A stretch of DNA of 20,606 nt from a bacterium. GTDB lineage: Bacteria; Zixibacteria; MSB-5A5; GN15; FEB-12. Below, in pieces: positions 1,295 to 16,021 of the stretch; position 1 is the first letter of the stretch; each line of letters starts with the position of its first letter. Location: positions 1 to 20,606 of the forward strand of contig JBDRNJ010000067.1 in assembly GCA_043811375.1 (NCBI GenBank), written 5' to 3'. Position numbers and translations under genes: made by a program. Below the pieces are notes generated by a model that had not been told where the DNA came from, did no database searches, and saw only the letters and a program-made list of their open reading frames with translations.

Positions 1295-2353
1295 TTACAG
1301 TGTGTCCTTCGCAGACAGACAGCAATCATACAGGTGTTGCGCAATCGACTGCGCCGCCAGGCGGTGACCCCGGGCATTGAAATGTGTGGGATCGCGCTTG
1401 GCATCATCGAACAGATCATTATGTTCATCAAAGTCGTGCGCCAGGTCCACTAATTCGATGCCATCAGCAGCTGCGACTCCACGGATAGTCCGGTTGTACC
1501 GTTCATGGAAATCGTGCATCGGCGACCGACTGCCGGGCGGGTAGTAGGAGACAAGAGATGGTATCGGCGATGTCAGCAAAACCGGTGTGGCACCGACCTG
1601 GTGAACAGAACGGCAGATTGCAGCCAGGTTATCAGCGAAGTCAGTCAAACCGACGCGGTAAACCGGTTGAGATCTATCCCAGGTGGAATCCGGGTGTCGC
1701 TCGATTGTATTCAGAAGCAGCTTCTTCATAAGACGATAACTGTGAAACCGTGACAGGACGTTCTGCACCGTCAGGATTGCCGGTGGAGGAAACTGTTGTT
1801 GTTTATCGCTGATCTGTCCGGCGGCCGCCCAGTGATCATTCCAGGCGAACAGAATCAGTACGATATCCGGCTGTAAACCGACCAGACGCCGCTGGAAGAG
1901 GCGCCTTCCCTGAAGACTCGTATAGCCGGGAACACCGGCATTGATTACCTCACACCTGTCCGTCAGCATGGTTTCCAGTTGAGCGGTATAGGTTTCCTCC
2001 AGCGACACGCCCCAGCCAAAAGTGCATGAGTTGCCCAATGCCATAATGCGACAGCCGCTTGTGGTCTCCGACACCTCACGACCGCGAAGACCAAGCGCAT
2101 TGATGTGATAGGTCTTTCCTTCGAAGAAGCGCGATGTTATGGTTTGATTGGGTCGCAGCTGCCAGAACAGGTCGGCGTCTTTCATGAATACGTCCGGATA
2201 ATCCAGCGCCCGATTGAGAACAAAGGTCCGATTCTGAAAATAGGTATCAACACCGGCCAGGCGCACCACTGTCTCGATCAGTCCCAGCAATACCAGCAGG
2301 CAGATGGCGGCCGCTACCAGCCGGTAAGCAACAGTCGGTTTGAACCCGCTCAT
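1295..2353 (-). CDS. Membrane-anchored SGNH/GDSL hydrolase-family protein
   Basis: N-terminal TM helix; block I ALGNSCTFG; INAGVPGY; FAWND; C-terminal DPTHFNARGH (DxxH). Confidence 0.85.
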   Translation of the reverse strand: MSGFKPTVAYRLVAAAICLLVLLGLIETVVRLAGVDTYFQNRTFVLNRALDYPDVFMKDADLFWQLRPNQTITSRFFEGKTYHINALGLRGREVSETTSGCRIMALGNSCTFGWGVSLEETYTAQLETMLTDRCEVINAGVPGYTSLQGRRLFQRRLVGLQPDIVLILFAWNDHWAAAGQISDKQQQFPPPAILTVQNVLSRFHSYRLMKKLLLNTIERHPDSTWDRSQPVYRVGLTDFADNLAAICRSVHQVGATPVLLTSPIPSLVSYYPPGSRSPMHDFHERYNRTIRGVAAADGIELVDLAHDFDEHNDLFDDAKRDPTHFNARGHRLAAQSIAQHLYDCCLSAKDTL

Positions 2354-2359
2354 GACACC

Positions 2360-2388
2360 AATATAGCCTGTGGCAGCACTCTTGTCAG
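2360..2388 (-). promoter_or_regulatory. Sigma70-type promoter giving a probably leaderless SGNH mRNA
   Basis: Minus strand CTGACA (2388-2383), 17 nt, TATATT (2365-2360), 6 nt, ATG (2353). No SD sequence is present. Confidence 0.5.
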
Positions 2389-2392
2389 CGCT

Positions 2393-2554
2393 TTAGAACA
2401 GAGTATATATGAAGGGAGCCAGCGCAGACGATTCGGTAAACACCACCAGCAGCGACAACAAGAGCAGAAAGATGATAATCGGTCCCAGCCACCATTTCCT
2501 GGACGTTTTCAGGAAGTACCAGAACTCCGCGAGAATTCGCATCCGTCGAAACAT
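2393..2554 (-). CDS. DUF5989-family (SxtK-like) small membrane protein, 53 aa; not in the ORF track
   Basis: Translated by hand: MFRRMRILAEFWYFLKTSRKWWLGPIIIFLLLLSLLVVFTESSALAPFIYTLF*. It has the diagnostic RKWWLxP and APFIYTLF motifs and sits directly downstream of a carbamoyltransferase. Confidence 0.9.
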   Translation of the reverse strand: MFRRMRILAEFWYFLKTSRKWWLGPIIIFLLLLSLLVVFTESSALAPFIYTLF

Positions 2555-2616
2555 GGCCGTCAAATCATCCTTACAAAGTCACTAACCGTGCCGAGAGTCA
2601 GTGACATACCATAACA

Positions 2617-4353
2617 TTAGTCAGGCGCTATCTCGAGACTGAATTGCCGTCGTAACTCAAGCGGCACCCGGATTCGACGTATAATGTAGTTTTCCATCAC
2701 CAGAATGTCAATCTCACCGGAACAGAAAGTCGCGAAGGCATCTTCGGGTGTGTTGACTATAGGGTGACCACGCAGATTAAACGATGTGTTGAGTACCACC
2801 GCTACGCCGGTCAGCTTCTTGTATTCACTGAGCACTCCGTGCAGAAAGGGATTGTCCCGGTGGGTCACCGTCTGTATGCGGGATGAATGGTCAACATGGG
2901 TCACCGCCGGAATTACCCGACGTTTATTTTCAACGACAGGATAATTGAACAACATATAAGGCGAATTGCCGACATTCTTAAAGTACTGAGAGACATCTTC
3001 CCGCAGCACTGCCGGCGCGAAGGGTCGGAATGGTTCCCGGTACTTGACGGCGGCATTGATCTTCTCTTTCATCCGAGCATCACGGGCATCGGCCAGGATC
3101 GACCGAAAGCCCAGTGCTCGCGGACCGAACTCCATCGCGCCCTGGAAGACAGCCACAATTTTACCGTCGGCAACGGCTTCCGCCACCTGGTGCTGAAGTG
3201 GTTCGGTAGTCATCTGTTGGTATGGGATGGTGTGTGTGTCCAGAAAGGTTTTGATCTGATCATTATCGTAAACCGGGCCAAGGTCGAAGAAGGACTGCGG
3301 CCTCTTATCCTCCCCGCTTAAGTGGTAGTGGGCGTAGAGAGCAGCTCCTACAGCGCCACCGGCGTCTCCGGCCGCCGGCTGAACATAAATGTCATCGAAC
3401 ACCTTCTCCCTCAGCAGCACGCTGTTGGCTCGGCAGTTCAGGGCCACTCCCCCGGCCATACAGAGCCGATCGAGGCCGGTCTGCCGACGCACATGACGCG
3501 CCATGCGCAACATGACCTCTTCCGTAACGGCCTGAATGGAAGCGGCTACATCTTCATGGAATGGTTCGATCTCATCCTGCGGGTCTCGTCTCGGTCGACC
3601 CAGTAACTTCTCCAGCCCGGAGCCGGTCATGGTCAACCCGTGATGAAAAGTGAAGTAGTCGAGATTGAGATGTATCGAACCATCGTCATGTATTCGCACC
3701 AGCTTCTGCTGCATCAACGAGGCGAACCGCGGTGTGCCATAGGGAGCCAGCCCCATGATCTTGTATTCGGCCGAGTTCACCCGGAATCCGAGATAGTACG
3801 TCAGCGCTGAATACAACAATCCCACGGAATGCGGATAGTGCATCTCACCCAGCAGTCTGACACTGTTATTATCGCCGACACCATACGATGCGTTCGCCCA
3901 CTCGCCGACGCCGTCAACAGTAAGAATGGCAGCCCGGTCAAACGGGGATGAGAAAAACGCACCGGCGGCGTGCGACAGATGATGCGACAGGTACAGTATT
4001 TCACCTTCGTAATTCAGTTCTCGACTTATAACGTAGTCGGTCCAGAGCTTGCGGCGCAGCCAGATCGGCATGGCCGCCAGAAAAGCCCGCCAGGAACGAA
4101 AGGGCGTGGCCATATATCCGGTCAGGATACGATCGAATTTCGCTAGAGGTTTGTCGTAGAAGACCACGTAATCCAGATCGAGCGTGGTCAGTCCGGCCCG
4201 TTTCAGGCAATAGGCGACGGCCTCGACCGGCAGCTCGGCGTCGTGCTTGATGCGCGAATACCTCTCCTGACCGGCAGCAGCCACCAGGGTTCCGTCGACA
4301 ACCAGGGCTGCGGCGGCGTCATGGTAGAAACAGGATATGCCCAGAATCTTCAT
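2617..4353 (-). CDS. O-carbamoyltransferase, NodU/CmcH/TobZ family (SxtI-like)
   Basis: MKILGISCFYHDAAAALV start (ATG at 4353 preferred over 4434); HHLSHA; DGVGE; EYKIMGLAPYG; AGGVALNC; EFGPRALGFRS; KYREPFRPFAP; LNTSFN. Confidence 0.93.
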   Translation of the reverse strand: MKILGISCFYHDAAAALVVDGTLVAAAGQERYSRIKHDAELPVEAVAYCLKRAGLTTLDLDYVVFYDKPLAKFDRILTGYMATPFRSWRAFLAAMPIWLRRKLWTDYVISRELNYEGEILYLSHHLSHAAGAFFSSPFDRAAILTVDGVGEWANASYGVGDNNSVRLLGEMHYPHSVGLLYSALTYYLGFRVNSAEYKIMGLAPYGTPRFASLMQQKLVRIHDDGSIHLNLDYFTFHHGLTMTGSGLEKLLGRPRRDPQDEIEPFHEDVAASIQAVTEEVMLRMARHVRRQTGLDRLCMAGGVALNCRANSVLLREKVFDDIYVQPAAGDAGGAVGAALYAHYHLSGEDKRPQSFFDLGPVYDNDQIKTFLDTHTIPYQQMTTEPLQHQVAEAVADGKIVAVFQGAMEFGPRALGFRSILADARDARMKEKINAAVKYREPFRPFAPAVLREDVSQYFKNVGNSPYMLFNYPVVENKRRVIPAVTHVDHSSRIQTVTHRDNPFLHGVLSEYKKLTGVAVVLNTSFNLRGHPIVNTPEDAFATFCSGEIDILVMENYIIRRIRVPLELRRQFSLEIAPD

Positions 4354-4355
4354 AG

Positions 4356-4601
4356 TCAGCTCTGTCGCCGCAGCTTCTCCAGATCGGGTTGGCGACCGTC
4401 GGTCGGTTTCCAGTTGCTGGCCTTTTTGAGACACCGCGACTGCGCTTGTAACGGGTCCCAGCCGAATAGACGAAACAGCCCACCCAGCGGTGACAGCACC
4501 AGGAAGTAAAAAAGGGTCAGCAACAGCTTAGTCTGGAAGCGCGCCACGGTCAGGGCGATTTTTTTCCACTTTGACCAGACCTTTCGTAGAATCATTTTCA
4601 T
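4356..4601 (-). CDS. SxtJ-like small membrane protein
   Basis: WSKWKKIALTVARFQTKLLLTLFYFLVLSPLGGLFRLFGWDPL resembles the SxtJ C-terminal pattern (W..L...L.....L...F.....P.G...R..G.DPL). Its stop lies 2 nt before the carbamoyltransferase ATG. ATG 4601 is preferred over 4622. Confidence 0.75.
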   Translation of the reverse strand: MKMILRKVWSKWKKIALTVARFQTKLLLTLFYFLVLSPLGGLFRLFGWDPLQAQSRCLKKASNWKPTDGRQPDLEKLRRQS

Positions 4602-4722
4602 GTCATCGGCCCCAAAAACCAAGAAATCGATTGACTCTTATCTGAACATCCATAATGTGCCTCTCAATGAAATATAGTCAGATTTCTACAGATTATCACG
4701 ATTCATTATTGGCCGGGCGGCG

Positions 4723-5757
4723 ATGACGGATCCCGGCGGCGACATTCTTATTACCGGCGCCTCCGGCTCGCTGGGCAAGCAACTGGTTTATGAACTTGAT
4801 CGGCAGGGCTTAAGCCCCGTTGCCCAGGTACGTCAGAGTTCCGACACGCGCTATCTCGATTCGGTCGGTGTCCGAAAGCGCGTGACCGACCTGCGAAACA
4901 AGACTGACCTGTCGCGATTGGTGGCCGGGGTCGACTCGATCATCCACACGGCGGCCTGGGTAAACTTTCGTCAGGATCGTCTGGCGGATTTTGTCGCCCT
5001 CAACACCGATGGTTCCCGGCATCTGTTTGCAGCCGCCCAAAAAGCCGGTGTGAAACGGTTTGTTCACGTCTCGACGGTGGCCGCCGTGGGGGCTATTCCC
5101 CGTCAATCACATGGCGAACTCAATCCGGTGGGTCCGCCTGACCGAGCCAGTGAAGACACTCCGTTTAATCTGGGGCACCTGCATATTCCCTATATAATGA
5201 CCAAGCGAGAGGCCGAGGAAAAACTTCTTCAGTCTGCCCCAGACGGGAAGACAGAACTGGTTATTGTCAATCCGTCGGTCATAGTGGCGCCATCGCGTAC
5301 CGGCGACGACCGAGGCAAAGCGCTCAAGAAATTCCCCCGCTGGCTGGCGCCCGGTCTGCCCAATTTTGTCAACCTGGTTGATATTCGCGATGTTGCCGCC
5401 GGAGTAATTGCGGCAATGAACAACGGCCGCCCGGGCGAGCGCTACATTCTGGGCGGCGACAACGTCACCGCCCGCGAACTGCTGCTGATCATTTCATCGG
5501 TGCTGGGACGTGCTCCACATTTTGTCCGGCTTCCCAGAGCCGCACTGTTCTCTGCCGCCCGCCTGGCGGCGTTGCGGGGCAGGCTGACAGGTTCGGGGAA
5601 AGTATCATTCTATCCTGACCTGATCAGACTTCTCGACTACGACTGGGCTTTTTCGTCCCGCAAAGCACGCCGTGAACTGGGTTACACCAGTCGCTCGTTG
5701 TATGTCACGCTCAAAGACCTCTTGACTAACAACTTCACACACAGCTACGCCCGGTAG
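4723..5757 (+). CDS. NAD-dependent epimerase/dehydratase (extended SDR, HpnA/dihydroflavonol-reductase-like)
   Basis: ITGASGSLG Rossmann motif; IIHTAA; FVHVSTVAA; YxxxK (YIMTK); VDIRDVA; GERYILGG. Confidence 0.88.
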   Translation: MTDPGGDILITGASGSLGKQLVYELDRQGLSPVAQVRQSSDTRYLDSVGVRKRVTDLRNKTDLSRLVAGVDSIIHTAAWVNFRQDRLADFVALNTDGSRHLFAAAQKAGVKRFVHVSTVAAVGAIPRQSHGELNPVGPPDRASEDTPFNLGHLHIPYIMTKREAEEKLLQSAPDGKTELVIVNPSVIVAPSRTGDDRGKALKKFPRWLAPGLPNFVNLVDIRDVAAGVIAAMNNGRPGERYILGGDNVTARELLLIISSVLGRAPHFVRLPRAALFSAARLAALRGRLTGSGKVSFYPDLIRLLDYDWAFSSRKARRELGYTSRSLYVTLKDLLTNNFTHSYAR

Positions 5758-5792
5758 CGTGCTTGTTGAAATCCGTGACCTCACTTACGTGA
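5751..5792 (+). repeat. Copy 1 of a degenerate 42-bp direct repeat (overlaps the epimerase stop codon)
   Basis: CCGGTAGCGTGCTTGTTGAAATCCGTGACCTCACTTACGTGA; 32/42 ungapped identity to 6692-6733 by hand alignment. Confidence 0.7.
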
Positions 5793-5896
5793 TAGTCTGC
5801 TTTTTCGCGCCAGTTGATTCTTAACAGTGCCAAGGCCTTTGATATTCATATAAAACCGATTTGATCTCCAACCTGTTCTTATTATGATTATTGGAC

Positions 5897-6646
5897 ATGA
5901 ATCTGATTATTCTGCAAAAAGAAGATCGAATTGACGATTTCCTCTATCGTATTAAGGACAATCGAGCCAGGCATATCCTCGAGATATTAAAACTCGATAC
6001 AGGAGATACTGTCGAAGCTGGTATTCTGAATGGACCTCAAGGGAAAGCCATAATCGAATCAGTAAGTGGGAACACGCTGATTCTCAAGTGTAGTGATTTC
6101 ACCATGATGCCCGCTCCTGCGATTACGATTGACTTGATTTGTGCCATGCCGCGCCCGCAGACCCTTCGGAGAGTATTGCGTACCATAGCGACAATGGGTG
6201 TACGAAAGTTGTTTTTGATCAGGGCAAACCGAGTAGAGAAAAGTTATTTCCATTCTCCTCTTCTGGAGCCGGACAACTATACCCCGTATTTGATTGAAGG
6301 TCTCGCCCAGGGGAAACTGACACGGTTACCTGAAGTTACGATCCACAAGCGTTTCAAACCTTTCTTTGAAGATACACTGAAAGACAATGCGAAAGATGAA
6401 ACGGGAGATGCTCTCAGACTTCTGGCTGATACTGAAACCAAACGTCTCCTGAGTAAGATATATTCAGATCCCCGTAGAGTTCTTCTTGCCATTGGACCTG
6501 AAGGCGGCTGGGTTCCGTTTGAGGTAGCATTGATGAAAGAAATTGGTTTTGAGTCTTTCACCCTGGGACAATGGCTCCTGAGAGTAGAATCCGCAGTAAC
6601 CGCTGCTTTGGCACAAATAGAGCTACTCGGCAGGGACAGTACATAG
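5897..6646 (+). CDS. rsmE: 16S rRNA (uracil-1498-N3)-methyltransferase (SPOUT)
   Basis: H..L.L..GD; AMPRPQTL...ATMGV; EGLAQG; AIGPEGGW; LGQWLLRVESA. ATG 5897 is preferred over TTG 5891. Candidate promoter TTGATC(5861)-N16-TATGAT(5883). Confidence 0.9.
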   Translation: MNLIILQKEDRIDDFLYRIKDNRARHILEILKLDTGDTVEAGILNGPQGKAIIESVSGNTLILKCSDFTMMPAPAITIDLICAMPRPQTLRRVLRTIATMGVRKLFLIRANRVEKSYFHSPLLEPDNYTPYLIEGLAQGKLTRLPEVTIHKRFKPFFEDTLKDNAKDETGDALRLLADTETKRLLSKIYSDPRRVLLAIGPEGGWVPFEVALMKEIGFESFTLGQWLLRVESAVTAALAQIELLGRDST

Positions 6647-6691: not shown

Positions 6692-6733
6692 CCAGTAGCG
6701 TGCTTGCCTGAATCCGTGATCACACCTGCATGA
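6692..6733 (+). repeat. Copy 2 of the degenerate 42-bp direct repeat
   Basis: CCAGTAGCGTGCTTGCCTGAATCCGTGATCACACCTGCATGA; shares the exact blocks GTAGCGTGCTTG and AATCCGTGA with 5751-5792. Confidence 0.7.
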
Positions 6734-6797: not shown

Positions 6798-7991
6798 TTA
6801 CTCAATTATGTCGTTACGTGAGATCTGTAGGCGAAGCATCTTGAGAAACATTGATTGTCCACCGCTGCCCGGCACAAAGTTTTTTGATGTAAAATCGTTG
6901 TCCGTTACGTCGATCGGTTCTAAATACCTGTAGAATTCCTTAGATAAGGGGATCCTTCCGATCTCCTCACCAACGATATCAAGATACACGTCATCCTTCA
7001 AAAACTTCATCAGAGCCTTAAAAGCATTAGATTTTGGAAGCAGATTTCCTACTTGATCTTTAGCGTCCCACGATTTTGGCCATTTATCTCTAACAGCAAC
7101 AAAGTAGTTGAACAGGATCTCCGCTATGTCCAGATCTTTATTCTCAATGAATAGGTTTCTAAAAGGGTGTTTTTTTAGCTCGTCAATAGTTGCTCTTTTA
7201 AGCTTCTTACTGTCCAGCAAATCATTTCTATCACGTACTGCGTCTGGAGTAATGAATTTAACGAGCGCCTCCACAAATGACGCCTGCGTTAGCGGTTCCT
7301 TGGTACGACCCGGAGTTGCTGTTCCTAACCTCTTTATTCTCTTATGCAAAGGGCTTGATTCTTCTTTGTCCAGCGCTACGGCAACATTATGACAACTTTT
7401 ATGAGGGCTGGAAGTTCTTGCAAGTTCTGTGAGATCATAAACGAGGCTTTTGCTTACTTTCGTCTGTGCCAGATTTACCGTGGCAAAGATGTTGGCCTGT
7501 TCAGATATATCAGCTCCAACAAAAATGGAAAGGTTAATGTCAAAATCCCGATCTTCGAATGGGAAAGCCCAATTGCCATTTTCATCCATAAACGAGGCTA
7601 TTCTGTGTTGCCCATCAATTACTTTGGCAATCATCTCATAGGGTATTTGTTCCTCACCTGTTTCTGGATCACCACCGAAAGAAGACAGGGTCAATACCCG
7701 TGATTCTTCGTTGTATTCAACACATCGCTCATCTATAGTAACGATTACCGCCGTGGGAAAGGTAGCATCTTGAGCGGTTACATATTTTTTTATCTCCTTA
7801 ATACGCTTCTTGCTGATTGGCCTCTGAATCCCCAAATATCTCTCTACATCGCGCAGTTCTGTGGCAAGACGTCTGACATCATTGTAGCAGATTTTCACTA
7901 GGTCCTGCGCCTTAATCGAAGCAATATAAAAATCACCTATCGGCTGTGATACTTTGAGCACTGGCAATTTGATCGTTCCTGCTACCATCAT
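6798..7991 (-). CDS. DGQHR-domain protein (DndB/ParB-Srx-like superfamily)
   Basis: GIQRPISKKRIKEI; FPTAVIV; VIDGQHR; EQANIFATVNLAQTKVSKSLVYDL. The start is 10 nt after the upstream stop, with AGGGT as a possible SD. Confidence 0.92.
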   Translation of the reverse strand: MMVAGTIKLPVLKVSQPIGDFYIASIKAQDLVKICYNDVRRLATELRDVERYLGIQRPISKKRIKEIKKYVTAQDATFPTAVIVTIDERCVEYNEESRVLTLSSFGGDPETGEEQIPYEMIAKVIDGQHRIASFMDENGNWAFPFEDRDFDINLSIFVGADISEQANIFATVNLAQTKVSKSLVYDLTELARTSSPHKSCHNVAVALDKEESSPLHKRIKRLGTATPGRTKEPLTQASFVEALVKFITPDAVRDRNDLLDSKKLKRATIDELKKHPFRNLFIENKDLDIAEILFNYFVAVRDKWPKSWDAKDQVGNLLPKSNAFKALMKFLKDDVYLDIVGEEIGRIPLSKEFYRYLEPIDVTDNDFTSKNFVPGSGGQSMFLKMLRLQISRNDIIE

Positions 7992-8001
7992 TCTTTTTAC
8001 C

Positions 8002-8643
8002 CTATTTCCTTACCCGGTTAGTAAATTCATCAGAAAAGCCTTTCTCATTCTCCCTATTGATACCAACAAAATCACCGGCTTGACCAATGCCATCAAGAAT
8101 CGAAAGGTACCAGCAGAAGGAAGCATAAAGGTACAGCCAGGGCGCGCTTTGTACTGCAATCCAGTAAAGAAAAGTCGTCTGGAACATTGATTTATCGGTT
8201 TTCGTGGCGCTAAATCCGGCAGCCGTTAGCAACAGCACTGCAAGAGCGAAAATCCAGATCCATCCATATCCGATAAAAGTACGTTTGATCACGTTAGATA
8301 CCTTTGATAACTTGTTATCGATATGGTCTTCAAGTTCTTTGTAGCGTTCGATGCTGATGTATAATACGGGTGACAGAAAAGATGCTGCATAGACAAACAA
8401 TTCGGCGCTAAAAACGGCCTTCTTAAATTCCAGAAGCAGCTTACTTAACACTGGGTGGCTACCATCCGGAATGCTCGATAAGGTGACGCTCAAAATCACT
8501 GGGGCCGATGAAAATAGCCACAGAATAATGAATTTGGGTAGAGCACTTTTGTGGCTCTGCCATGAGAAGAACACTAAAGATTGAAGAAACGGAATTTTCG
8601 TGACAATAGACGATAAGATCTTCTTGGTTTTTATCCAAGACAT
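8002..8643 (-). CDS. Hypothetical integral membrane protein, about 4 TM helices
   Basis: Four hydrophobic segments (FIILWLFSSAPVILSVTL; LFVYAASFLSPVLYISI; GYGWIWIFALAVLLLTAAGF; FLYWIAVQSAPWLYLYASFCWYLSIL) and a charged C-tail. The start overlaps the last 13 nt of the upstream methyltransferase. Confidence 0.8.
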   Translation of the reverse strand: MSWIKTKKILSSIVTKIPFLQSLVFFSWQSHKSALPKFIILWLFSSAPVILSVTLSSIPDGSHPVLSKLLLEFKKAVFSAELFVYAASFLSPVLYISIERYKELEDHIDNKLSKVSNVIKRTFIGYGWIWIFALAVLLLTAAGFSATKTDKSMFQTTFLYWIAVQSAPWLYLYASFCWYLSILDGIGQAGDFVGINRENEKGFSDEFTNRVRK

Positions 8644-9458
8644 TTGATCACCATCTCATCGTATTTCCCTCGGGCAGATGACTTGCCCGAAATGACACTA
8701 GCTCTGCTCAATGTAATATGCTCACCAATCCCGTAATAAAGCTCTTGAATACATTTGTTACAGGCATTTGTGATTATTAACTTAGCTCCGCGATCCAGCG
8801 CCGACCTCACACAATTGCGGAGACGTATTTGATCTTCCCAGGAGAATAGACTCTCATTGTACTTTATGAAAGCATTGTCGTTGTGTCTGACCGTGTACGG
8901 CGGATCTACAAAAACAAAATCACCAGTTTTGGCCTTACCTAGAATGGTCTCAAAATCTTGTGAGTAAAGCTTGGCATTAGCTAGAAGTGATGCACATTTC
9001 TCAAAATCATCAGTTGAGAGAATCACATTTGTCTTTGTACCGATTGGTACATTAAACTGACCTCTTAGATTTACTCGATATAACCCGTTCCAACATGTTC
9101 TATTCAAGTATATGAATCGTGCGGCCCCACCAGCACTTGATCGAGGTTTTTGTGCTCTTATCTTATAGTAGTATTCTTTTGTGTGACTTCTGTGATGATT
9201 TCTGAGCAATCTCAGCACTTTCTTCCAATCATCACCTATTGCCCGATAGGTATCTATTAATTGCGCATTTGAGTCTGACAAGATCGCGCTTTTGGGGGCT
9301 AGCCTAAAGAATACAGCGCCACTACCGAGAAATGGCTCAATATAGCGCTCAAAGTGAATATTCAAGAGTTCAAGATGATTCTCGACGAGCCACCTCTTAC
9401 CACCTGCCCACTTCAGAAATGGTGGTAGGGGCGTGGTCACGGATTCCTGCACACCCAT
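8631..9458 (-). CDS. Dam-family (D12 class, alpha-group) N6-adenine DNA methyltransferase
   Basis: PFLKWAGGKRWL; YIEPFLGSGAVFF; ARFIYLNRTCWNGLYRVN..GQFNVP; FVFVDPPY. The start is either ATG 9458 or ATG 9473. Target specificity cannot be read from the sequence. Confidence 0.93.
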   Translation of the reverse strand: MGVQESVTTPLPPFLKWAGGKRWLVENHLELLNIHFERYIEPFLGSGAVFFRLAPKSAILSDSNAQLIDTYRAIGDDWKKVLRLLRNHHRSHTKEYYYKIRAQKPRSSAGGAARFIYLNRTCWNGLYRVNLRGQFNVPIGTKTNVILSTDDFEKCASLLANAKLYSQDFETILGKAKTGDFVFVDPPYTVRHNDNAFIKYNESLFSWEDQIRLRNCVRSALDRGAKLIITNACNKCIQELYYGIGEHITLSRASVISGKSSARGKYDEMVIKCLG

Positions 9459-9511
9459 GTTCTTACCATCCAATGGAATCCTGGTGTCTATGGGACTTCC
9501 AATTTAATAAA

Positions 9512-9585
9512 TGGCGGGGGGAGGATTTGAACCTCCGACTTTCAGGTTATGAGCCTGACGAGCTACCAGACTGCTCCACCCCGCT
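9512..9585 (-). tRNA. tRNA-Met(CAT), initiator (fMet) type; CCA not encoded
   Basis: Minus strand AGCGGGGTGGAGCAGTCTGGTAGCTCGTCAGGCTCATAACCTGAAAGTCGGAGGTTCAAATCCTCCCCCCGCCA folds as a cloverleaf with CAT anticodon. The unpaired 1-72 (A/C) and A11:U24 are initiator hallmarks. Confidence 0.95.
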
Positions 9586-9596
9586 GAACAGGTGCC

Positions 9597-9624
9597 AATA
9601 TAGCAGCCGGTGAGGCCGTGTCAA
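9597..9624 (-). promoter_or_regulatory. Sigma70 promoter of the tRNA-fMet gene
   Basis: Minus strand TTGACA (9624-9619), 16 nt, TGc-TATATT (9602-9597, extended -10); 11 nt before tRNA position 1. Confidence 0.7.
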
Positions 9625-15019: not shown

Positions 15020-16021
15020 TCATCGTGACGCTACGTTAGTGAGATCGTTACCAGGTCGTGCCGATACCGGCTCAATGGGCAGGGCAGCTTCGACTGCGCC
15101 CAGTTCCTGCTCGAACGGATGACCCGCCTGCCAACCGGTCCGGCCGGTGCTGCGGTGGTGTTCCAGCCGACGAACGGTTATCTCCGCAAAGACAGGGTCA
15201 ATGTCAAACGTAAGGCACTGTCGGCCGGTTCGTTCGCAGGCGAGAAGTGTGGTGCCGGAGTGTGCAAAGAAGTCGGTCACCAGGTCGCCCTCAACGGAGG
15301 AGGCCAGCACGATACGCTCGATCGCCGCTAACGGTTTCTGGGCGTAGCAGCCATTGACGTTTTCCCAGCGGCGATAAAACACCTGCTGGATATCCACCCA
15401 GACGTTTCCGGCCCGGATAGTATCCGACCGGCTGCGTTGCAGGTTTTCGGTACGTTGTCCGGCCACCTGCTTGTAATAGCCGCGCAGAACTTTGGGGATA
15501 TCGGTATACTGCACGGCAAAAAGTGGCTTGCCACGCGTGTAGTAGAGCAATTCCTGCCGGATCGCCATCCAGTTTTTCTGGGTGCCGTAGCCGCGCTGGT
15601 TGCGCAGGGTGATAAATGACCGAGACTCAAAACCGGTTGCAGCCATCATGGTCATGAATTGCGGCAGCGGCTGAAAGTGATCCTTCTGATCGGCTCCCAG
15701 CCAGACATACAGGGAACAGTCGTCCGAAAGTACATCCGAGCAACAGTCGATCCAGCCACGGCACCAGGCAATATACTCCGGCACCGTCTTTTTCTCGAAC
15801 ATTACCAGATTATATGGCGGATCCAAAACAGCCAGGGTCGCCTTCCGGCTGTTGAAAGCGCGGCGGACAAACGCCGGATCAGCGCCATCGCCACAGCCGA
15901 TAACGTGACCGGCATGGGGATCATGCCAAATATCACCCGGTTTGAGGCGGCAGTGAGGAATTAGTCGCGCCCGGATTTCGTCGGCATCGACATCCAGTCT
16001 TGGCAAACGTGCAACTCGCAT
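15020..16021 (-). CDS. Orphan site-specific DNA methyltransferase, N6/N4 family (beta-class motif order)
   Basis: DPPYN (motif IV) precedes QKP..IERI..SS..GDLV.DFFAHSGTTL (motif I); N-terminal PGDIW...H.IGCGD. Confidence 0.88.
   Translation of the reverse strand: MRVARLPRLDVDADEIRARLIPHCRLKPGDIWHDPHAGHVIGCGDGADPAFVRRAFNSRKATLAVLDPPYNLVMFEKKTVPEYIAWCRGWIDCCSDVLSDDCSLYVWLGADQKDHFQPLPQFMTMMAATGFESRSFITLRNQRGYGTQKNWMAIRQELLYYTRGKPLFAVQYTDIPKVLRGYYKQVAGQRTENLQRSRSDTIRAGNVWVDIQQVFYRRWENVNGCYAQKPLAAIERIVLASSVEGDLVTDFFAHSGTTLLACERTGRQCLTFDIDPVFAEITVRRLEHHRSTGRTGWQAGHPFEQELGAVEAALPIEPVSARPGNDLTNVASR

Follow-up and report, generated by a model that had tools for sequence, protein, structure and literature searches.

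The window analysed here is a whole stretch of 20,606 nucleotides (nt) of contig JBDRNJ010000067.1 (assembly GCA_043811375.1) from a bacterium of the phylum Zixibacteria, in which three co-oriented genes encode a Dam-family DNA methylase, a small membrane protein and a protein with the DGQHR motif (the DGQHR protein below). These genes likely form a mobile cassette, found again in many phyla, that acts as an anti-phage system, and for the cassette overall a role in defence is predicted with good confidence. The cassette is small (2.7 kb), and if this reading is true it would represent a widespread nuclease-free defence with DNA modification as the self signal and the action at the membrane. 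It would also provide a function for the orphan Dam methylases of a conserved clade, for the family TIGR04172, which has been unexplained since 2011, and for an unnamed family of membrane proteins.

Conservation of the cassette

An alignment of DGQHR proteins was used for retrieval of 80 genome loci (the best 80 of 155) and 23 viral loci, and after exclusion of five distant viral loci (L099–L103, 23–31% identity) 98 loci, 80 genome and 18 viral, were counted, with the near-duplicates L004/L007 and L074/L085 among them. The protein alignments omit 15 loci that were truncated, split, duplicates or mis-called, and the DGQHR tree was built by a quick method. The DGQHR gene is immediately preceded by a hydrophobic open reading frame (ORF) in all 76 genome and all 17 viral loci that have at least 600 nt of upstream sequence (93/93). 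The profile of this ORF was built from the same genes that were counted, and BLASTP linkage independently unites the membrane genes of 84 loci in one family. A Dam-family gene at no less than 35% identity is found within 4.2 kb in 57 of the 80 genome and 17 of the 18 viral loci, and addition of three more divergent ones raises the numbers to 59/80 and 18/18 (77/98). The survey of gene neighbourhoods proposed in the original prediction thus bears out the co-occurrence of the triplet in other genomes.

Among the 21 genome loci without a Dam gene six are cut off, one is separated from its Dam gene by an IS91-like gene, and nine contain another N6-type methylase (four divergent D12 enzymes, one of them fragmentary, four MT-A70 enzymes and one MmeI-like enzyme), while a motif scan placed a C5-cytosine methylase near only one of the 98 loci. 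The reverse search, started from the membrane protein, gave 13 partly redundant metagenome loci with DGQHR downstream in 13/13 and Dam upstream in 10, the other three being cut off. Clustering of the neighbours returned only three large families, the next being phage repressors, present in 11 loci, and integrases, present in 9, and no conserved fourth gene or nuclease partner appeared in it. At least nine phylum-level groups keep the gene order while their DGQHR proteins are 40–70% identical, and the cassette is carried on plasmids and prophage-like contigs. Two weak matches (25%) were the only ones among 50,697 records of isolated phages, and a distant blastn search of low sensitivity gave no Escherichia coli match to two cassette variants. 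In two distant loci a related unnamed gene of 220–275 amino acids follows the DGQHR gene (L037:9173–9844 and L045:9061–9888), and one of the two products is weakly PDC-S64-like.

To judge from identity tracking and from methylase exchanges, the membrane and DGQHR genes are a fixed unit, while the methylase is exchangeable; therefore the pair likely needs a mark rather than one particular enzyme. Over 67 loci the pairwise identities of the DGQHR proteins follow those of the membrane proteins with a rho of 0.50 and those of Dam with a rho of 0.33, the pairs being not independent. The loci L012 and L016 share 82% DGQHR identity, yet possess different methylases; conversely, L015 and L082 have Dam proteins 89–94% identical to that of L093, whereas the DGQHR proteins are 44% and the membrane proteins 12–13% identical. 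The convergent Dams of the prophage-like loci belong to one group, and their partners stem from two DGQHR clades. Where Dam is absent, the pair often stands beside restriction genes: BglII/BstYI-like (L036, L152, L153), also found next to the pair on plasmids, MmeI-like (L037) or DpnII (L098).

In the prophage-like loci (L015, L056, L058, L082, L086, L089–L096) the membrane and DGQHR genes come after a repressor-like gene and face a convergent Dam gene; beside the same Dam the pair has been swapped, in the fashion of a phage hotspot. A distant pair on a Bacillus thuringiensis plasmid (L158:6473–8679) is accompanied by a convergent nucleotide pyrophosphohydrolase gene and by dcm about 4 kb off, with no annotated adenine methylase, and here a clean-up enzyme or a cytosine-mark version of the cassette is possible.

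The three proteins

The identities given to the methylase and to the DGQHR protein in the original prediction agree with the profile searches. The methylase matches TIGR00571 dam with 236 bits (cut-off 115) and PF02086 with 167 bits (cut-off 22), its S-adenosylmethionine motif and DPPY motif are intact, and its best match in PDB is the DpnII-1 methylase (E 2.4e-55), with E. coli Dam at E 7e-30. The residues of its recognition loop align with those of E. coli Dam and DpnM, and across 76 aligned cassette methylases R133 is kept in 75, P143 in 74 and L131 in 68; in E. coli Dam these residues serve the recognition of GATC. The enzyme is a Dam/DpnM-type (D12) N6-adenine methylase predicted to be specific for GATC, and the near-invariance of the recognition loop suggests that the sequence motif matters to the system. 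With the queries used, all three genes are single-copy in the genome, the methylase being its only Dam-like match and the DGQHR gene its only PF14072 gene.

The DGQHR protein scores 230 bits against TIGR03187 (cut-off 59), 188 bits against TIGR04172, which is under the cut-off of 450, and 70 bits against the DpdB equivalog, which is under the cut-off of 300. The DGQHR, QR and FxxxN motifs are all present, with Q56-R57, D126-R130, F169 and N173 invariant, and the DGQHR motif occurs in 82 of 82 aligned members. The C-terminal 210 amino acids gave nothing meaningful in Pfam at E≤1, no DUF262 (PF03235) or HNH match was found in the protein, and the DGQHR profile had no match among PDB sequences at E≤1. 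The original prediction had named a nuclease in this C-terminal half as the finding that would reduce the cassette to ordinary restriction-modification; none was seen, the HNH motif (D/E)HxxP being present in 3 of the 82 members. Its further statement that the triplet lacks a nuclease also stood, since no nuclease family was matched in the three genes and no conserved nuclease partner was found. The protein is predicted to be a DndB/DpdB-like nucleoside triphosphatase (NTPase) of the ParB/Srx fold, a sensor whose C-terminal domain contains no recognisable nuclease motif.

Five loci (L020, L028, L039, L044, L045) encode an additional long DGQHR protein of 550–790 amino acids (Table 1), three of these proteins being weakly PD-(D/E)xK-like and two weakly HEPN-like (E 0.002–0.012), and this four-gene variant matched no named PADLOC system. 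In the Atlas the whole DGQHR protein aligns to nuclease-like or HEPN-like fusions with TM values of 0.65–0.71. Because related modules are fused to PD-(D/E)xK-like or HEPN-like parts, these data suggest that DGQHR acts as a sensing module, coupled to effectors either in cis or in trans.

The model of the membrane protein consists of helices only, without strands (predicted local distance difference test score 90.8). A simple hydropathy scan gives three segments, and from the model and the charge pattern four membrane helices are inferred. The more basic loops are the N-terminus, the loop between helices 2 and 3, and the C-terminus, and both ends are therefore predicted to be cytoplasmic. No family was found for this protein in PADLOC or Pfam, NCBIfam returned one hydrophobic chance match, and 82 members of the family compared with PADLOC gave nothing beyond two or three weak hydrophobic matches. 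Comparison of the profile with PDB sequences found hydrophobic or designed proteins only, and the fold searches gave no informative match (best E 0.4 in Foldseek; in VIA-align generic helical bundles, with Z at most 6.8), which demonstrates neither a new fold nor a different one. Among representatives at 50% identity the family counts 238 relatives at E≤0.001. It is an unnamed family, predicted to serve as effector or anchor. Its mean column identity is 18% with zero invariant columns, while the DGQHR family reaches 46% with many invariant polar residues, and because of this difference the DGQHR protein is likelier the sensor of the two.

Setting of the locus

The layout is that of the original prediction to the nucleotide: the methylase and membrane genes overlap by 13 nt (8631–8643), and a gap of 10 nt (7992–8001) separates the membrane gene from the DGQHR gene. 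The placement at the 3' end of a tRNA gene was also correct, as the TTG start of the methylase lies 38 nt from the 3' end of tRNA-Met(CAT). No promoter-like or terminator-like site is reported between the two, and the cassette is likely transcribed by read-through from the strong promoter ahead of the tRNA gene (Table 1).

Table 1. Features of the cassette with its upstream elements, and extra long DGQHR genes of related loci
Feature	Position	Strand	Length	Remark
Methylase gene	8631–9473	minus	280 aa	TTG start; translation may truly begin at ATG 9458 or at a GTG a few codons further
Membrane-protein gene	8002–8643	minus	213 aa	four predicted membrane helices
DGQHR gene	6798–7991	minus	397 aa	TIGR03187 match
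tRNA-Met(CAT)	9512–9585	minus		3' end is the cassette insertion site
Sigma-70-like promoter	9597–9624	minus		11/12, extended TG; upstream of tRNA-Met
Extra long DGQHR gene	L020:5054–7330			
Extra long DGQHR gene	L039:5142–7415			
Extra long DGQHR gene	L044:1745–4126			
Extra long DGQHR gene	L045:4156–6516			
Extra long DGQHR gene	L028:3135–4787			

The GC content of the methylase, membrane and DGQHR genes is 42.8%, 42.4% and 42.3%, respectively, and that of the cassette 42.5%, compared with 58.4% in the epimerase gene and 53.6% in the genome, where only one of 1283 tiles of equal length is as low as the cassette. The cassette is therefore AT-rich against its flanks, as had been claimed, while the figures of 32–40% GC, taken from single lines, are not retained at the gene level (42%). 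The membrane family was matched in none of 107 other genomes of the same family and strongly in 3 of 285 genomes of the phylum, the own genome counted; because of this distribution the cassette is, on the evidence of sequence comparison, a rare, foreign and patchy acquisition in the host lineage. In seven relatives of the same family neither the tRNA nor the neighbouring genes are present in about 10 kb upstream of rplM. The genome search found no att-type duplication of the tRNA-Met end, and no integrase is among the ORFs of the window. A repeat at 9430–9451 and 6705–6726 (18/22 nt) was considered as a boundary of the cassette and rejected, as it was estimated to be near chance and no genome-wide element was seen.

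Other features of the window are as follows. A 42-nt direct repeat, 76% identical, at 5751–5792 and 6692–6733 flanks a gene of RsmE-like RNA methyltransferase (5891–6646, GC 46%) and has no further copy in the genome; it may be an old insertion scar, with rsmE perhaps a separate acquisition. The three G-C pairs expected in the anticodon stem of an initiator tRNA are not seen in tRNA-Met, which is initiator-like by its mismatched first pair, yet has a stem ending in A-G-G / C-C-T; a copy 93% identical is located on contig C46. A second DNA methylase of the N6_N4 family is encoded at 15020–16021 with no restriction enzyme seen alongside. The operon at 1295–4622 on the minus strand includes genes for a GDSL/SGNH hydrolase and a carbamoyltransferase and a small membrane ORF, and perhaps serves the modification of a surface polymer.

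Sister clade linked to phosphorothioation

The closest named subfamily is TIGR04172, "DNA phosphorothioation-associated DGQHR protein 1", where a gene for a small, putatively four-helix membrane protein precedes the DGQHR gene as it does here. It was defined as a strict satellite of phosphorothioation with unknown function, according to the available part of the source (PMC3226654). In plasmid loci of this type a gene for 170–230 amino acids lies directly upstream and dnd-type genes are adjacent in 8/8 annotated cases, and an unannotated E. coli locus has a similar ORF upstream. These upstream proteins have three or four hydrophobic segments in the same layout as the membrane protein of the cassette. 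The two clades differ in the DGQHR identity of 25–28%, with a score below 450 for the protein described here, and in the partners, dnd-type genes there and Dam here; no phosphorothioation genes were found among the scanned ORFs of the window. A viral scan with a TIGR04172 protein found nothing.

Homology of the membrane proteins of both clades is unproven by these comparisons: hidden Markov model scores against the cassette family were at most 13.7 bits, and of the eight proteins six stayed below or close to 9.9, the highest score of the shuffled sequences, while one had no reported score. With hhalign the probability was 25% and the score 27.8, where column shuffles, as a lax control, reached 14.2. 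It is conceivable, though less likely than not, that a two-gene module of mark reader and membrane effector has been retuned to different marks, N6-methyladenine (m6A) in the cassette clade and phosphorothioate in the TIGR04172 clade. If so, the module would contain the first sensor of ParB fold to detect methylated DNA, or methylated nucleotides once released, and to gate a new family of membrane effectors in response; a widespread class of "orphan" Dam methylases would be accounted for, and the systems with an own marking enzyme that the Metis authors predicted would have an example.

Proposed mechanism and its alternatives

The best model, put forward tentatively, is that the DGQHR NTPase reads an m6A self-mark on DNA and triggers the membrane protein. 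The methylase would mark the host DNA with m6A, at GATC by prediction, and the DGQHR protein would read this mark through its NTPase in the manner of DndI/SspE. Once the mark is lost, or when unmarked phage DNA enters, the membrane protein would be activated and stop the infection; as the DGQHR protein has no nuclease domain of its own, its output would go to the membrane partner. The outcome would be abortive infection, or else incoming DNA would be trapped at the membrane as in Kiwa. Reading of m6A on DNA is favoured because the characterised relatives read self marks on DNA and because the Dam recognition loop is near-invariant. For example, in the accessible text of PMC11662687 the ATPase of DndI is stimulated by the phosphorothioate self mark and releases DndI from self DNA, and DpdB is described as a DNA-stimulated ATPase dimer without endonuclease activity (accessible part of PMC10164549).

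Several observations weigh against this model. Five of the 74 testable genome loci (L003, L024, L028, L030, L077) have no nearby methylase, and no PF02086 match is present anywhere in the genomes of L003, L024 and L028, the completeness of which is not given. Of defence genes nearby, for which the original prediction had proposed a survey, a modest number was found: PADLOC matched 13 of 135 immediate neighbours of the genome loci, about eight of them plausibly defensive, without background control, and most immediate neighbours look housekeeping; REase_II had no match among the 135. DNA binding by the DGQHR protein is argued by analogy, from family precedent. The pairs without Dam are often beside a full restriction system, which fits a guard role too, and the replacements of Dam by MT-A70 or other D12 enzymes, with the motif unassigned, equally fit the sensing of nucleotides.

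Such sensing is the basis of the first alternative, a Metis-like alarm of genome integrity, which is the main rival, though rather unlikely. From host DNA that the methylase has loaded with m6A, phage nucleases would free methylated nucleotides, the DGQHR fold would bind them and open the membrane protein, and the sister clade beside phosphorothioation genes would respond to breakdown products that contain sulfur. Systems that bring their own modifying enzyme are predicted in the Metis preprint (10.1101/2025.11.05.686725), binding of ATP and GTP by a DndB-like protein is described in the available part of 10.1101/2025.10.10.680097, and the exchangeable methylase (L012/L016; L015/L082 vs L093) agrees with a sensor of released nucleotides. 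In one case, L066, a Hydrolase and Hydrolase-TM pair of the Metis II type (E 5e-85 and 1e-32) is directly upstream of the Dam, membrane and DGQHR genes and co-oriented with them. However, the membrane protein does not resemble MisC (hhalign 1.8%; Hydrolase-TM matched in none of the 82 members), a MisB-like clean-up enzyme is absent from the cassette and, by profile PDLC03008, from the 95%-complete genome, the near-invariant recognition loop of Dam suggests that the motif matters, and the characterised relatives read marks on the DNA polymer.

An improbable alternative is that the genes are not anti-phage at all, being a selfish addiction or prophage-maintenance module, where loss of methylation, once the element is lost, would unleash the membrane and DGQHR proteins, or else unrelated passengers. 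The frequent occurrence in prophage-like contigs beside repressor and tail genes is consistent with this, as is the rarity of adjacent known defence genes; mere passengers are argued against by the constant gene order over at least nine phylum-level groups and by the independent re-pairing with methylases. Addiction and defence are compatible and not mutually exclusive.

About as improbable is the guard role, in which the membrane and DGQHR proteins watch the methylase or restriction system and kill when a phage inhibitor binds the methylase. Ocr-like and ArdA-like phage proteins are inhibitors of this kind. The complete restriction systems beside Dam-less pairs (L036, L152, L153, L037, L098) speak in its favour, and Dnd-associated backups of such kind were proposed in PMC10853773, the available part of which suggests that DndB may guard by targeting modified nucleotides and does not describe the cassette. 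In the original prediction the DGQHR protein was also a possible guard of the methylase, and this idea is weakened because close DGQHR relatives adjoin very different methylases. With Dam, divergent D12, MT-A70 and, in the sister clade, Dnd enzymes as partners, a shared binding surface is unlikely, and the DGQHR distances, in pairs that are not independent, follow the membrane protein better than Dam (rho 0.50 against 0.33).

Finally, it is quite improbable that the cassette is an ordinary restriction-modification system whose nuclease is hidden in the C-terminal domain of the DGQHR protein, with the membrane protein merely as anchor: nucleases exist among ParB/Srx members (available part of PMC10853773) and H201, D254, R255 and R278 are invariant beyond the NTPase core, but the HNH motif (D/E)HxxP is found in 3/82 only, no nuclease family was matched, and DpdB with its equivalent domain shows no endonuclease activity (accessible part of PMC10164549).

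Comparison with known systems

No named PADLOC system was matched by the triplet, in line with the original prediction that it is not a named system. The model of an m6A-reading DGQHR protein resembles DndI/SspE, where a ParB/Srx-fold NTPase is also encoded beside the self-marking enzyme; switching of the NTPase by the mark is the predicted common trait. The differences are that DndI/SspE have DGQQR, a phosphorothioate mark and an HNH nuclease, while here the mark would be m6A made by a Dam-type methylase, HNH is absent and the fixed partner is a membrane protein; the combination of DUF262 and C-terminal HNH (D/E)HxxP by which DndI, SspE and GmrSD are recognised is not found in the cassette. 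Dpd is distinguished by the DpdB cut-off, which the DGQHR protein does not reach, and by a further gene such as dpdA or dpdC, the cassette having no conserved fourth gene.

Metis type II (the HAD protein MisB and the membrane effector MisC; Hydrolase-TM in PADLOC) is likewise nuclease-free, dependent on adenine methylation and equipped with a membrane effector, but homologues of MisA, MisB and MisC are absent here and a DGQHR protein is present instead. The MisC profile PDLC03009 matched none of the 82 membrane-family members, while it does match a neighbour in L066; the hhalign value given above refers to one MisC-like sequence. MisB (PDLC03008) is beside only one, L066, of 79 genome loci with scanned neighbours, and PF00149 (MisA metallophosphatase), which beside a methylase marks the putative type III, had no match in the three genes. 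DGQHR is unmentioned in the main text of the Metis preprint (10.1101/2025.11.05.686725), and a Metis II-like pair was linked to the E. coli 2862600 system in the accessible part of PMC9122126. The island of L066 (2384–8661) comprises a C5 methylase and a Vsr-like gene (identified by eye), followed in one direction by Hydrolase and Hydrolase-TM, Dam, the membrane gene and DGQHR.

Kiwa resembles the cassette in the pairing of a four-helix membrane protein (KwaA) with a soluble DNA-binding protein (KwaB), the partner here being only probably DNA-binding. KwaA has a cytoplasmic beta-barrel, as described in the available part of PMC11785009, whereas the membrane model of the cassette is strand-free; moreover, KwaB is a DUF4868 protein and Kiwa has no methylase. 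The KwaA and KwaB profiles had no match in the cassette genes or in the 82 members.

Dazbog, to which the original prediction had linked the DGQHR protein, shares methylation-linked abortive infection and a component of ParB-like fold. This link did not hold: with PADLOC 2.0.0, which includes Dazbog models, no DzbA or DzbB profile matched the cassette genes at E≤0.1. According to the accessible text of 10.1101/2022.08.27.505566, Dazbog consists of two genes with DUF262/PF03235 in the first, is triggered by a phage cytosine methylase and has no methylase of its own, and the accessible text of 10.1101/2022.05.11.491447 mentions neither DGQHR nor DndB with regard to it.

In DpnII-type GATC restriction-modification the methylase is DpnM/Dam-like as here, but the DpnII endonuclease is absent from the cassette and no cognate type II endonuclease was found in the window. 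With PD-Lambda-5 the label of a methylase alone is in common (available part of PMC9519451); its B profile matched the methylase weakly (E 4e-8 against 7e-101 for MTase_II) and its A profile was unmatched. No description of a cassette with Dam, membrane and DGQHR genes was found in the literature, though supplements, the large tables of defence screens and current DefenseFinder models could list it. By its sequence relationships, the cassette would be a modification-sensing defence made of known parts in an unnamed combination, together with an unnamed family of membrane proteins.

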